From Carcharhinus amblyrhynchos (lineage: Eukaryota): a stretch of 64,000 nucleotides of DNA. The first letter of the stretch is position 1. Every line of letters starts with the position of its first letter. The notes under the pieces are model-generated. The model saw only the letters and a list, made by a program, of their open reading frames with translations. It was not told where the DNA came from and ran no database searches. A program made the position numbers and the translations under genes. Location: contig OZ336884.1 in NCBI GenBank assembly GCA_965287045.1, positions 47,492,001 to 47,556,000 on the forward strand. The letters run 5' to 3'. Positions 1,661-9,232 of the stretch are shown here, in pieces.

Positions 1661-3053
1661 AGACAGAATGAGGTTTCGGCGGGGGGTGGAGTGCATTTCT
1701 GTTTCACTCTCAGTCTCATGGTTCTCACTGATCCTTGCACCCTACCTCACAGTGGATGAGGCTGAGAGAGAGAACAGGACAAACATTCTCATCTTTCACA
1801 GTCTAATGATCATCTTTCTTTACAGTTCTTGTTTTTAATTATCAATTTACCATTTTGACTTTTTCTTGCTCAGCAAATTCCCTTCAGATGTCAGCTTTTT
1901 TCAAAGATTAAAGTTTAATGTGGTGAGAAACAAGTTGAATGTGCCCTCCCCGTAGCACAGGAAAAGGTTTGACACGGCTGCTCTGAGACCAGAGCTGTTT
2001 GAGGATGTCCTGCAAAGCCATCTGCAGTCTCTTTTCAGCTATGCTGCAGCCAATGAGGTAGAACTCAATAGGTCAGGCAAAGGTACCATCAAAAAGGGGA
2101 TGCATCAGGGTCAATAGCTGACTACACATCTACTATTGGTTGGTTTGTTGGATGAGGTCGGTGTGGATGATTGCATTGTGGTAATGTTTATTTCAGCATT
2201 GCAGCCAAGAGGACTCTGATGTTCCAAAAGGGAGGGACCAGAACATTATAGGCGGGAGTTTCTGGTGTCACTCACCCTGAAATCAAAAACTCCTGCCCGA
2301 GGTTAGCGGACCTTTGGTCTGCCCCTCGCCTGCTCTGACTCCTGTGGTGGGCAGAACAGAACATTCAACCCAGATGTTTGACTGTTGCACAATTTGGGCT
2401 TGTGTTTGAGTGGAATCATAGTTGACTGATGTGATCAGGGATCAGCTGGCTGGAAAGGGGAACTGCTGAAAGTTCCTCAAGTTGCTCCCTGTATCCTTGA
2501 TGGCAAGGTCTGGTCCTCAATGGTTAGGTTGTGGAGGCCATCGCGAATCAGGACACACACTCAGGCTAATGCTGGTGGACTCCCTCTGGGAAATTTAAAG
2601 AATGGAATTATTTCTTCAGAACCCCAGTGGACTGCTCTATGATTTGTCAAGTACCATGGCACTCGTGTAGAGTGAAGTTACGTGCCAGCTGTCAAGCAGA
2701 GAGTCATGAACTCCTAACAGTCATCCTCTGATTTGATGGGGTGGCTCAAATGCTATGGGAACAACAGACTGGCACAGACAATTGTGATGGCTGCCAGGAT
2801 AGTGGGCCCTCACCTGTATGATGTGCTGCATCATCGCACACAAACTACATATTTCCCAAGTGGTTGTGATGCAATTCAGGATTTAAATGAGGCAGTTGGA
2901 AAGGCACTTGTGCAGTCAATGCCACCTTGCAACACTGGATATCCACCCCCTCCCCCACATCCCCTTCCTGACAAAACTAAGTGCACACTCTGCCTTCTCT
3001 CTGGTCAGAAAGAACACAATGAGCTTCCCTCCTCTGGCAAAAGAAACATTGCT

Positions 3054-3090
3054 GCTTCTCAGCCTTTTGGCTAAGGTCAAGTGTAGTATC
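3054..3090 (+). pseudogene. U2 snRNA 5' fragment (nt 4-40: stem-loop I, U6-pairing region and branch-point recognition GTAGTA)
   Basis: gcttctcAgccttttggctaagGtcaagtgtagtatc matches vertebrate U2 nt 4-40 at 35/37. There is no Sm site or 3' domain, so it is not a functional U2 gene. Confidence 0.9.
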
Positions 3091-3358
3091 AACATGCTTG
3101 AAATCATGAGGTTAGACTGAGGTTTCATTTGAAGCAAATTTTTTAAACGGCATCTCGGCCTTTTGGCTAAAATGCAAATGAGATCAAGCCTTGGAGGAGC
3201 CTTGCAATGCCTGTTCGAATCAGCTTGGATCATGTAGATCAAGTCCAAGACAGGGAGTGAGAGGCCTGTCTTGTCAGCTTGGATCGGGAATGTCTCACTT
3301 GCTGAAGCTTGGAATTGGACTTTGATTGAATTGGATATATAAACAAAAAAATCTTATC
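3054..3358 (+). mobile_element. U2-derived, structured, A-tailed retroelement end (SINE-like element or 3' UTR of a non-LTR element)
   Basis: Two U2 segments (3054-3090, and 3153-3170 which is U2 nt 7-24 exactly), several inverted-repeat stems, a direct repeat TCAGCTTGGATC (3220-3231 and 3274-3285) and an A-rich tail at 3341-3351. Confidence 0.6.
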
Positions 3359-4531
3359 TCTCTGTAGCAGCAGTTAGCACTATATAAAGATCATACCTAA
3401 TTCATCCTAGAAAGGATGCAATGAGATGGTCACCAGATCTAGTCATTTTGAATTAAATTTTAGGAACATTATTTTTGTAAAGTACAGGCAATGCATTAAT
3501 TCATCCTTGCTAAGTGGGAGGTAAAGGCATCTGGAATACTGGAAGTGAATGAGACTTCCTACAGAGAGCTCTTTCCTCCTCCTCCTCCGTGCAATACAGC
3601 TAGTCTTTTTTGCTGCTTCTGCTCAATCTCCCCCACTTGCCTCAGTTCAAATGTGATTGCAATTACAGCACTCAAGACGGAGAGAAAGGGGCCTGACCAG
3701 AATCCTTGCAGTCACAACTAAGCCCTTCTCTATGTGCAGCACAACTCCCTAAGCACAGACCACTTGTGTGCATGCACATGTTTGTGTGCGGATATGTGTC
3801 TGTCTGTGTTCTTGTTGCTGAACATATGCTCAGCTCTGCATTTTTAAGAGAAGGCGTTGGCTAGAACAGCAAGCTCAAAAATCAAAAGTACTGGCTCTAA
3901 ATCAGCTTTACATGCTGATTGATATCACAATCTGGCTACTCTGTATACGTCTGGTGCACACTCCTTACATCCAAGTCATAACCCTCAACAAAATGACATT
4001 GGGCCCAGGCCATGTGGGAATTGTTATAGACAATACAGGCACCCCTATTTTAATACCAAAAGGGCACCTGGAATATAAACTGTCTGCATAAGGGAGCCCA
4101 ATTTTGGCGCCATAATCTTTTTAGCCTTTTTTGGACTGAAAAGCTTGAAACATTTCTGGTGGAGACAAAATTACAATTTTAAATTGTACCGTACTTTGCA
4201 TGATCAGTGAAACATTCCTGGCAGCATTTGACTGTTGGACAATGAAAAGTGAGCACATTAGTTGTTTGGAAATGTTGATGACTGATCAAGAATAGGCAAG
4301 CAATTATTTTTCAAGCATCTGCCCAGAAGAAGAAGAGCGTTTGTCCAAATGGCTTCTATTCCTCCATCCTCTTCAATTTCAGACCAAAATTACTGGTTAA
4401 TTATTAGTCATCAAAATTGATTGCTTTCTTTTCTACAATTGGTTGAACCCTGATAAACTGACAATGTTAATCACATTATGCCCATTTTTTAGAAATTAAG
4501 TGTAAAATGCCATTTTTCAGTGCTAATGAGT

Positions 4532-6378: not shown

Positions 6379-6805
6379 CTATACCAGAGATCCTGCCCTG
6401 TTCTGTGCAGGTATCATGACTGGTATGCCACCCATTCGCTGAAGATTTGAATGACTAACAGCATAGGAGAGTGTGTGCTGTGAAGGAGTCTTACGACTAA
6501 GTGAGCCATTGCATTTTGCTAGGTTTTGTGAAGATGGACTTCTTGTAGCAACAACCATTGCCTTTGGTGTGGCGTGGTGGCTTCCGTTTGTATACAGTGG
6601 TCGGTTCTGTGGTTGACTAGATGTCGTTGTAATTGAGTGGAGCGTGTGTCCGTTGTACTGACTGAATGGATTTGACTCGTAGATGGGCTTCTTGTTTTGC
6701 CAGTAGTGGGCATTATATGTGTTTGCTGACGTAAGGGTAACATTTTCAGAGGAACTAGCTGGATGGAAACCTTTGGTAGATGCTGCTGGTGGGATGTCAT
6801 CTTCC
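6379..6805 (-). CDS. IGSF11: IGSF11 last coding exon (cytoplasmic tail ending in the class I PDZ-binding motif ...AQNRAGSLV*)
   Basis: Acceptor ttcttttcttcag|G. The frame (not in the ORF track) reads EDDIPPAASTKGFHPASSSENVTLTSANTYNAHYW...SYAVSHSNLQRMGGIPVMIPAQNRAGSLV, with TAG stop at 6379-6381. The C-terminus matches IGSF11 VPVMVPAQSRAGSLV. Confidence 0.96.
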
Positions 6806-9232
6806 CTGAAGAAAAGAACATTATTTTTTTAAAAATCTCAGAATAATTGTTAGCCATCTACTGATTCTGTTGCATTTTCTGTTATATCAATAAATATCAC
6901 AAATAATTCATGACATGAATGATGATTTATTCCAGGAGTTAAAGTGCTAAACCTGATCATAGGAAATTAAAATTCAATAAACTAAATAGATTGCACTAAT
7001 CCTGTGCTCAAAATGAACACAGGTCAGAATGCTCCATTTGCATGCAATTTCTCCCTGAGATATTTGTTCTCTATATATTTTATTTGTACAACATTGAATC
7101 AGTGAATTACATTAAAACTCTGATATAGCGAAGCCTATTAACCCTCTTTATGGCACGAAGAAATCAGTATCGTATATTCAAAGTATCTTCCAACAAATCT
7201 CAGTTCCACTGGAATCCAATCTCACCCGTGAGAGCAGGAATCTTGCATTTCATTAATTATTACAATTGACAACATTGTTCATGTCCATTAGATTAAAATA
7301 TAATTAAAATAAAACCAGTGTGCTTTACAAAGTAAACTGCTGTTCCAAAACTAAAAGCTTTAATGAATTCCACAGTACCTTGATCGTTACACAAGTGTTC
7401 TCGAGAGTTAGAACAGACCTTGAAGTAAATTATCCCTGTATCTTGTGAGTTGCCTAGCAACTTTGAAATCAAAGTGATTTCAGTACTCCTATCAGTTTGA
7501 CCTAGTTTCAAATCCACAAGTAAGTGGTGAAAGCACAACCTTCTGATCATCTGCTTCACTCTCCTCCTTATAGTTAGGTATTTATGAAGTTCATCACGAA
7601 GACACCATAGCACAGACTAATGGTCGAGTGGATAAAAGCACAGCATGATATAGTATTGAACCTGCCCTCCACTAAGTACCCAAATCCGTAGCATGATGAC
7701 TCTGCGGGGGAATTCTGGAAGAATCAAACACGTCTCTCATCACTCTACATTGATGTTCGAACATATTACACCATCAAACTATCCTCACACAAAATAGTGC
7801 ACTTGGTCACTGAAACCTCACATTTTAAAATCGTCTTTTTAAATGTAATCTTGTATTTAATGCACCTATTACAAACAGACTGCCCAACTAATCAGACGAC
7901 CTGTGAAAAAAAATCCTAAGGTCCACAGAGTCCTTGTACATCATCCATTATTCCATAATCCATCAATTCTCAGCACACGTTTTTTTCTGGAATCACATAA
8001 TTAGGACCTGATATTTTAGCTTAAAAGGATGACAAATGTAACTGCTATAGCCTTCAGAATGAAAACTACATTTATTCATTTAACTCGATCAATCAAGTAT
8101 TCTGCACAATGAAAATATGCAGTTCCATAATTTTTCTTCCACAGAACTTAATAAGGAACATTTTGGTGAATTCAGCATTGATGTCAATCAGAGTAATGCA
8201 CATTACATTCACAACTTCCTGTGATCGCTAATCATGGAGCAAGGGAAGAACAGAACAAATTGGATCGATGTATGTTGTACAAATAAAAACCTTATGCCCA
8301 GCATGTATCTGTAGCTCTTCAAATGTCAAGGCTTTACATATTGTGGCTGTGCTCTTGCATGTGCAATAAACCTTTATACCACCACATCCTTCAGAACTAC
8401 TAATGCTGAGATATGCCAAATGAATCAATTGTCTGTTTCAAGTTGCATCCAAAACATTTCCTCTTAGCGGGGCAACACATTCATCAGTTTAACTGGGAAT
8501 ATGAGGCTGAAGTTTGGCAAGTACAGGGTTTCCATAGTACAGGGGATAGTAGATGGCATTCCATGCTTCAAAATTATTTTCTGGCAAGACCAGCATTTAG
8601 TGCCCATCTCAAATTGTCCTCGAGGTGGTGGGTATTTAAACAACTTGTTGTTGGATTGCACTCATCAGGGAAACTGTGGAGTTGTCAGCCTCTTGATTTG
8701 TGTCTTGCAGGTGGTATAAAAACTTTTGGGAACCATAAGGTGGGTCAATTGCCACAAAGTACCCAAGTTCTGATCAATTCCTGTAGCTGGCTGGACCAGT
8801 TAAGTTTCTTGTCAATGGTGTCCCCCAGGATGACAATGGCAATGCCACTGAATGTCAAGTGTATGTGGTTAGACCTTCATGTCATTGTTTGGCACATGAA
8901 ATACAAATGTTACTTCCTCCATATTAACACAAACCAGATGTTGACCACAGCTTCAAGCCGGGAAAGACTGCCCCATTAAGAGGAATTGCAAAAAGGATTG
9001 AAATACTACTAGTCATTAACTCCTATCTCCATTTCTGACCACATGACGGAGGGAAGGTCATTCAAGTTTCAGCTAAAGATGGTTCAGCCTAGGGTCCTAC
9101 CCCAAGGTACTTGCTAGTGATACCCTGTAGCTGATTGGCCTCCAATAACTATGGCTTTACGAACTGGTATGATTTTCTGACAGACCAGGTGTGCTACTTC
9201 TATTGGAAAAAGACGCACTGATACCCTGTTGC

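Follow-up and report, generated by a model that had tools for sequence, protein, structure and literature searches.

A U2-Headed Element in the Window

The window analyzed here, a stretch of 64,000 nucleotides from Carcharhinus amblyrhynchos, contains at positions 3051–3351 an interspersed element of ~300 nt on the plus strand, and all of the parts described below lie on that strand. Its boundaries are the points at which homology ends in 30 aligned loci, and the HMM match to the window copy spans 3053–3343. A first-pass annotation had described an RNA structure at 3121–3316; this span lies within the element but leaves out the head (3051–3113) and the tail (3317–3351), and what it marks is the central part of a retroposon and not a free-standing RNA. 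No ORF of 150 amino acids occurs near the element, which is short and non-coding. The locus almost certainly represents a short non-coding retroposon, in a decayed copy that belongs to subfamily A1 of what we call family A. No target-site duplication (TSD) is detectable around the window copy, the best flank repeat being 5 nt.

The element opens with a U2 snRNA head (3051–3090) that corresponds to U2 nt 1–40 and includes stem-loop I, the U6-pairing segments, and the branch-point recognition sequence. The head is identical at 35 of 37 positions to nt 4–40 of a U2 gene from the same genome and matches the Rfam U2 model with 43.9 bits (E = 2e-7), below the 46-bit cut-off. The window as a whole gives no Rfam hit at gathering score, and U2 is the sole meaningful family at E up to 10. 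An antisense arm follows (3091–3113) that is predicted to fold back onto the head and from which 9 nt are deleted in the window copy. Next are a family-conserved 5-bp hairpin (3122–3135), which is present in the copy's own MFE fold and intact in each of the four subfamily majorities as well as in 63 of 87 copies; a single-stranded linker rich in U (3136–3149), which is Sm-site-like in the alignment to the U2 model and includes six consecutive T, enough to stop Pol III; and a second U2 stem-loop I (nt 7–24) with an extended clamp (3150–3175), formed in majority folds. The last of these had been recognized correctly before: the stem-loop I copy at 3153–3170 is identical at 18 of 18 positions to nt 7–24 of the genome's own U2 gene, and the GCAT/ATGC clamp is present at 3150–3153 / 3172–3175.

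The longer 11-bp stem onto which stem-loop I had been said to be grafted (3121–3131 with 3175–3185) can be drawn but is not a real feature of the family. Its pair probabilities are 0.12–0.39 when 3121–3316 is folded, 0.16–0.51 in the whole element, and 0.0 in the family majority. It requires a private C-to-T change near 3123, competes with the 5-bp hairpin, and shares base 3175 with the clamp and bases 3182–3185 with the first hairpin module; it is broken in all four subfamily majorities and complete in 4 of 87 copies.

Two hairpin modules, as the first-pass annotation proposed, occupy 3182–3231 and 3237–3285, and the ends of each can pair over 8 bp. Module 1 consists of this 8-bp outer stem, a 1x3 internal loop, and an inner stem derived from the branch-point stem-loop (BSL) of U2, discussed below. 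Module 2 has the same frame and a perfect 9-bp inner stem (3246–3254 with 3265–3273), in which all nine pairs are Watson-Crick. The two modules align to each other with a score of 50, reached by none of 1000 shuffles. Module 1 is damaged in the window copy (z +0.36, versus z −2.1 to −3.5 in the majorities), as is a remnant of U2 stem-loop IIb (3292–3308), which is recognized by homology via the sister family B. The tail (3309–3351) comprises a remnant of the U2 region 5′ of the Sm site and an A-rich end (3341–3351); TATAAA occurs at 3338–3343 in the window copy, and AATAAA occurs in the three other subfamilies. What had been taken for a designed RNA at this locus is instead one decayed copy among thousands, differing from its own subfamily majority in 32 columns, and the genomic copy here is most likely ordinary, inert DNA.

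The last coding exon of IGSF11 (6379–6828, minus strand; context only) is 82–97% identical to shark IGSF11, the best match, at 97%, being a shark IGSF11. As previously annotated, it is convergent to the element, with its stop codon ~3.0 kb away. Because five minus-strand AATAAA sites lie between the element and the stop codon, the element is probably outside the IGSF11 3′UTR. The region immediately upstream of the element (1900–3050) is compositionally distinct and by eye resembles a decayed coding mobile element.

Copy Number, Subfamilies, and Insertion Marks

A genome search with window positions 3040–3360 returned 3,123 candidates, 40 of which were scored, giving 42 matches that cover query positions ~14–312 at 78–86% identity, the self-match aside. 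The alignment of 30 loci shows sharp ends, the U2 head, and the A-rich tail. An exact 18-mer from module 2 has 2,796 matches in the genome (reversed control, 0), and all 30 of the matches sampled belong to family A. Among copies found without its use, the four subfamilies retain the 18-mer in 12 of 29, 11 of 27, 3 of 5, and 30 of 30 cases; by arithmetic from these counts the family has roughly 6,000 copies. The true number is probably above 6,000, since the sampled copies are better than average. Evenly spaced samples amounting to 400 kb contain no family A copy and one family B copy, which is compatible with this estimate. The same samples led us to reject the 119,259 Rfam first-look candidates as a copy number.

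Clustering and further searches resolve family A into four subfamilies, A0, A1 (which includes the window copy), A2, and A3, with majority sequences of 301–311 nt including the A-tail. Identity to the own majority is ~89% in A0, 92.5% in A1, and 94.7% in A2. A3 is the youngest: its 30 best copies, chosen by likeness to one copy, are 98.8–100% identical to the majority, and its young tail has 437 exact matches (control, 0). A TSD score of at least 10 is found in 16 of 62 young copies versus 0 of 484 swapped flanks; 44 of the 62 show no TSD. Twenty-one of these copies begin within nt 1–5, and 33 are truncated beyond nt 12. The TSDs and 5′ truncations of the young copies point to a LINE-type insertion. 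The subfamilies carry diagnostic changes and have internal rearrangements in common, a combination that indicates descent from source genes and not a sum of independent chimeras.

True U2 5′ pieces stand in front of 3 of the 62 young copies (L265, L285, and L286). Such pieces, which extend to nt 45–55, are prefixed to SINE copies at these loci and at L029, as in SINEU-2. A head-to-tail SINE neighbor occurs within 60 nt at 19 of 167 loci, and none occurs in the opposite orientation. Trains of at least three SINE copies are found at L017, L112, L245, L250, L273, and L295, some of which mix families A and B or include the LINE Keno. Compared as possible pointers to a source locus, 30 young 5′ flanks share only assorted common repeats, and none of them matches the U2 promoter-proximal region.

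Descent from U2 through Family B

Family B is an older sister family that was found beside a LINE and has at least 1,186 candidates, at 85% identity to its majority. Its members are ~215 nt long, correspond to U2 nt 1 to ~165, and contain the nt 24–31 motif in triplicate. The copies at L096–L125 and L139:4256–4442 retain an Sm-like site and stem III, have an A-rich end, and resemble SINEU-3 as described, which is likewise a rearranged U2.

Two family B copies align to U2 nt 32–191 with scores of 105 and 100, and the 3′ part of family A aligns to the same two copies with scores of 68 and 94.5; none of 1000 shuffles reached the score in any of the four comparisons. Aligned straight to U2, the 3′ part of family A is not significant (176 of 1000 shuffles), so the descent of the modules from U2 depends on family B as a bridge. 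Judged from these alignments, each module is U2 nt ~24–62 with a duplicated 5′ arm, an origin that goes beyond what the first-pass annotation had said of the modules.

The BSL comprises U2 nt 23–47 and contains the mismatches A30–C40 and U27–U43 (PMC13019295). In family B, the A30–C40 mismatch is replaced by G–C, as is the adjacent G–U pair. In module 2 of A1–A3, the U27–U43 mismatch is gone, leaving a perfect 9 bp, and module 1 reaches a similar inner stem with different letters. The outer stem would consist of the duplicated nt 25–31 paired with an altered nt ~53–62, whereby stem IIa of U2 is removed. The oldest subfamily, A0, and family B retain an Sm-site-like stretch; A1–A3 have lost both this site and the 3′ stem-loops. 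The sequences can be placed in an ordered series from U2 through family B to A0, A1, A2, and A3, along which the BSL appears to have been duplicated, repaired, and locked.

Predicted Folding of the Source RNA and Tests for Selection

The whole majority sequences fold with z −5.2 (A1), −4.7 (A2), and −6.1 (A3), values reached by none of 100 shuffles in each case; family B gives a less extreme value (z −1.93, 5 of 100 shuffles). The outer stem is paired at 8 of 8 positions in all nine majority modules, while the inner stems turn over. For the stretch singled out in the first-pass annotation (3121–3316), the energy in the window copy is no better than that of shuffles (−59 kcal/mol, z −0.78, 37 of 200 shuffles as good) but is far better at the level of the family: the family-majority equivalent has z −4.05 (0 of 100 shuffles), and the median over 29 copies of A1 is −2.84. 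When the whole window copy is folded, an alternative pairing displaces the 9-bp stem (probability 0.0); module 2 alone has z −2.69.

Between subfamilies, three pairs are changed on both sides and kept, two in module 1 and one (253/264) in the IIb remnant of the youngest subfamily. Depending on the structure used, diagnostic changes keep the pair in 15 of 27, 16 of 26, and 16 of 30 cases, compared with 262 of 697, 275 of 714, and 272 of 713 for private changes (Fisher p 0.07, 0.024, and 0.12 for kept versus broken pairs). Paired columns also carry diagnostic changes at about half the density of unpaired columns (p 0.048, 0.017, and 0.061). These comparisons are circular in part, since the majority rows tested also served to derive the structures.

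A module alignment was made from 17 regions, namely the window and 16 of the 24 best copies (1 of 6 from A3, 5 of 6 from A1, 6 of 6 from A2, and 4 of 6 from A0). In this alignment 94.8% of cells pair, versus 27–49% when it is slid, RNAalifold recovers both modules, and the covariation score is reached by 3 of 500 shuffles. Two of the 34 module pairs change on both sides, a count that 304 of 500 shuffles match. Many one-sided G–U changes could be due to CpG decay or A-to-I editing. A pairing between the module-2 loop and the IIb stem was rejected as a conserved feature; it is present in A1 and the window copy and absent from A2 and A3. Taken together, the tests on pairs are suggestive of selection but partly circular and short of decisive.

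Part of the low fold energy is a trivial outcome of inverted duplication, and the self-complementarity as a whole might be a by-product of tandem and inverted duplications that arose in reverse transcription, with no selection on structure. The duplications are demonstrated, the selection statistics are weak, and the window copy folds like a shuffle. However, duplication alone is insufficient to account for the outer stem, whose 3′ arm is U2 nt ~53–62 altered until it pairs with the duplicated nt 25–31; moreover, the BSL mismatches are repaired, and three pairs are changed on both sides. We consider such a by-product unlikely. The data instead support the modules as a conserved fold, predicted for the source genes of the family, and selection on the fold in those genes is likely. 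Of the roles that had been suggested for the structure, that of a handle for the reverse transcriptase complex is one it may have.

The Antisense Arm and the Branch-Point Sequence

The arm behind the head is absent from the first-pass annotation. It corresponds to element nt ~41–72 and repeats U2 nt ~10–39 in inverted, degenerate form. Head and arm together fold with z −3.8 to −6.0 in all four majorities (0 of 200 shuffles). The similarity of the arm to the reverse complement of U2 is matched by 14, 19, 328, and 13 of 1000 shuffles in the four majorities, and is modest because many of the changes give G–U pairs. Over the four majorities, the unpaired probability at the four leading bases of the branch-point motif is at most 0.14 in 15 of 16 cells, versus 0.89–1.0 at five of six bases of the same motif in U2. 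By this prediction the arm hides the greater part of the branch-point recognition motif, a sequence left open in U2. That this masking, together with stability, is the reason for selection on the fold is a plausible suggestion in which our confidence is just short of even.

Two other readings give the U2-like parts a more active role. In the first, the BSL, a switch that has to open for splicing, would have become in a still-active retroposon a duplicated, permanently closed protein-binding module that, with the self-masked head, hijacks U2 snRNP proteins to reach the Keno complex, in the way that Alu exploits the SRP fold to gain access to L1; we regard this as quite unlikely. The second elaborates the suggestion of the first-pass annotation that the RNA mimics U2 to recruit spliceosomal factors: stem-loop I and the locked BSL hairpins would be offered to SF3b and DDX46/Prp5, providing a ride to U2 loci or to nuclear bodies in which the LINE complex operates. 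This accords with the near-identity of the two stem-loop I copies to U2, with a module frame that is invariant across the nine majority modules as inner stems turn over, with the Sm-site-like stretch of A0 and family B, and with the reported binding of Prp5 to the BSL (PMC4281567). The predicted masking of the branch-point sequence argues against mimicry, however, and so do module loops that have drifted from the branch-point motif in the younger subfamilies and the loss of the Sm-like site and 3′ stem-loops in A1–A3. Furthermore, the BSL-stabilizing change U43A is described as leaving human cells with little U2 and little splicing (PMC13019295). Mimicry of U2 is decidedly unlikely, and we retain the reading in which the fold was selected in the source genes of a retroposon.

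Transcription

Runs of 4–6 T occur in all four majorities, and AATAAA or TATAAA directly precedes the tail. These features suggest transcription by Pol II and polyadenylation, by the argument advanced for SINEU (PMC4494074). No match to tRNA, 5S, or 7SL was found by Rfam in the element, nor any ribozyme family at Rfam E up to 10 in the window copy or the body of a young copy. Among 12 near-identical copies of the U2 promoter, 10 are at intact U2 genes, 2 are with Keno, and none is with a SINE; the window copy is absent from these loci. At L313:1501–2167 and at L314, which flank the U2 array, a degenerate U2 promoter is followed by U2 nt 1–15, an antisense fragment, and a partial family A element. 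The antisense fragment resembles a ribosomal-protein S18 retrocopy.

A Keno-Type LINE as Candidate Partner

The real U2 genes form an array with a 10.56-kb unit, the ORFs of which we take from their translations to be CR1-like and RTE-like. In the main array (L031–L038 and L298–L309, contig C45), 2 of the 12 promoter copies are interrupted by Keno. A 407-bp tandem satellite also occurs, in which a ~215-bp spacer alternates with a variant U2 that is 87–88% identical to the main gene. This satellite, at L055:7545–9187, L088–L090, and L095 (contigs C334, C98, and C734), is heavily invaded by the Keno-type LINE. Large gaps in the U2 satellite listing for contig C98 proved, over the 20 kb examined there, to be gaps of the listing, Keno insertions sitting elsewhere in such arrays.

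The LINE belongs to Tx1 and has an intact ORF2 of 1,135 amino acids with endonuclease, RT, and zf-RVT domains. It is inserted at U2 nt 37/38 in both the satellite and the real U2 genes, its copies are 97–100% alike, and the satellite insertions often have 15–18-nt duplications of U2 nt 38–56. Disrupted U2 genes without their first 38 bp are described in PMC4640811, where Keno and Utopia share that site. The LINE appears to be of the Keno type, a name given here by site and domains, not by tree.

Among the 167 SINE loci, which were chosen without regard to the LINE, 7 have Keno as an immediate neighbor on the same strand, none on the opposite strand, and 11 have it within 3 kb; in 464 kb of background (the 400 kb of samples and the 64-kb window), Keno has no match. 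L173 is a Keno-3′UTR/SINE chimera, and L221 contains Keno and SINE within one common target duplication. A SINE tail is followed by U2 nt 38/39 onward at five of five distinct loci (1 match in the reversed control versus 6), and the U2 pieces at these loci are without promoter. Young copies at the U2 nt 38 site amount to 6 pattern matches, 2 of them clearly an older SINE, against 437 tails; as this is only ~1%, targeting to U2 is weak. The tails of the SINE and Keno have no homology beyond a short AATAAA-containing motif (4, 199, 134, 95, and 38 of 200 shuffles). At L091:4835–4854 (minus strand), a dispersed, 5′-truncated Keno lies within a family B head with a short duplication, which indicates that Keno also hits U2-derived SINE heads. 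We propose the Keno-type Tx1 LINE as the probable partner that copies the element in trans, a candidate drawn from the one LINE clade examined.

The element could in principle be a non-autonomous, internally deleted derivative of Keno or a set of independent U2-LINE chimeric retrocopies, given that its U2 head ends near the Keno insertion site and that Keno copies also gain U2 heads. This is highly improbable and largely refuted by the source genes evident from the common rearrangements and diagnostic changes, as well as by a comparison with 4.3 kb of Keno in which neither body nor tail shows significant homology, any local matches being at chance level; the first part of ORF1 and the 5′UTR lie outside that comparison. 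A locus-specific functional RNA or IGSF11 regulator (an antisense RNA or 3′UTR hairpin), suggested by the convergent position near the IGSF11 stop codon, is hardly credible for a copy with 32 differing columns, a broken module 1 and 5′ arm, a fold no better than shuffles, and five minus-strand AATAAA sites between it and that stop codon.

We therefore favor, as the probable explanation, a U2-rearranged retroposon with a hairpin-chain source RNA that is likely copied in trans by a Keno-type LINE. A source copy would be read by Pol II and polyadenylated via the AATAAA or TATAAA before the tail, the T-runs speaking against Pol III. Keno ORF2 would take the source RNA by its poly(A), since the tails share no sequence, and target-primed reverse transcription would then place it at relaxed sites in most cases and at U2 nt 38 in some. 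The fold was likely selected in the source genes: the arm would cover the branch-point sequence, and the BSL stems, once repaired, would stay closed. The masking and closed stems would make the source RNA stable and harmless to splicing. The twin modules may also be a handle for the LINE complex.

Comparison with Known Elements and Implications

The closest parallels are SINEU-1 to SINEU-3 of crocodilians, which as described in PMC4494074 are likewise short, with a U2-derived head, poly(A), internal oligo-T, and no internal promoter. They also have in common with the shark element the absence of a tail shared with a LINE, repeated 5′ snRNA additions, tandem insertion, and, as a probable feature on the shark side, a Tx1-clade partner related to Keno. 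Of the SINEU features tested, the shark element shows the U2 head, a length below 500 nt, lack of coding capacity, poly(A), high copy number, TSDs and truncation, and 5′ snRNA additions. It differs from the SINEU of that account (PMC4494074) in that rearranged U2 makes up most of its body, which includes duplicated BSL modules together with an antisense arm, and in its association with Keno and U2 nt 38, that of SINEU being with Mariner-N4_AMi. Kojima 2015 (PMC4494074) found no SINEU outside crocodilians and left open how these elements are transcribed. Judged from the descriptions of SINEU, the shark element is probably of independent origin.

The U2-targeting Keno (Tx1) and Utopia LINEs (PMC4640811, PMC4494074) use the same U2 site, the 3′ flank starting in this genome at U2 nt 38/39. 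Unlike them, the shark element is non-coding and ~300 nt long, and Keno is its candidate partner. With U2 snRNA (RF00004) the element shares the head (nt 1–40), stem-loop I twice, the BSL-derived inner stems, and the IIb remnant; unlike U2, it is below the Rfam cut-off and polyadenylated, with stem IIa rewired, the branch-point sequence masked, and the 3′ stem-loops lost. The full U2 fold, Sm site, and upstream U2 promoter of a functional U2 gene or variant are absent. From classical Pol III SINEs it is set apart by its U2 head and by T-runs in all four majorities. Monomeric and dimeric Alu possess an internal Pol III promoter and a protein partner, SRP9/14, for neither of which a counterpart is shown in the shark element. 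Alu and the shark element are otherwise alike in that a small host RNA has been rearranged and duplicated into a structured RNA that follows a poly(A) route with an L1-like enzyme, the Alu side of which is in part covered by PMC4494074.

No report of a snRNA-headed SINE from a shark was found in the literature searched; Repbase and Dfam lay outside this search and may hold an entry. The portions considered of PMC5381603, PMC5786205, and PMC5753468 mention no shark case.

One genome combines a subfamily that is very young (437 exact tails) with an intact, young candidate LINE and an ordered series from U2 onward. The questions of partner, promoter, and RNA fold are directly testable in this genome, and retroposon copies may account for thousands of the 'U2' hits recorded in shark annotations.
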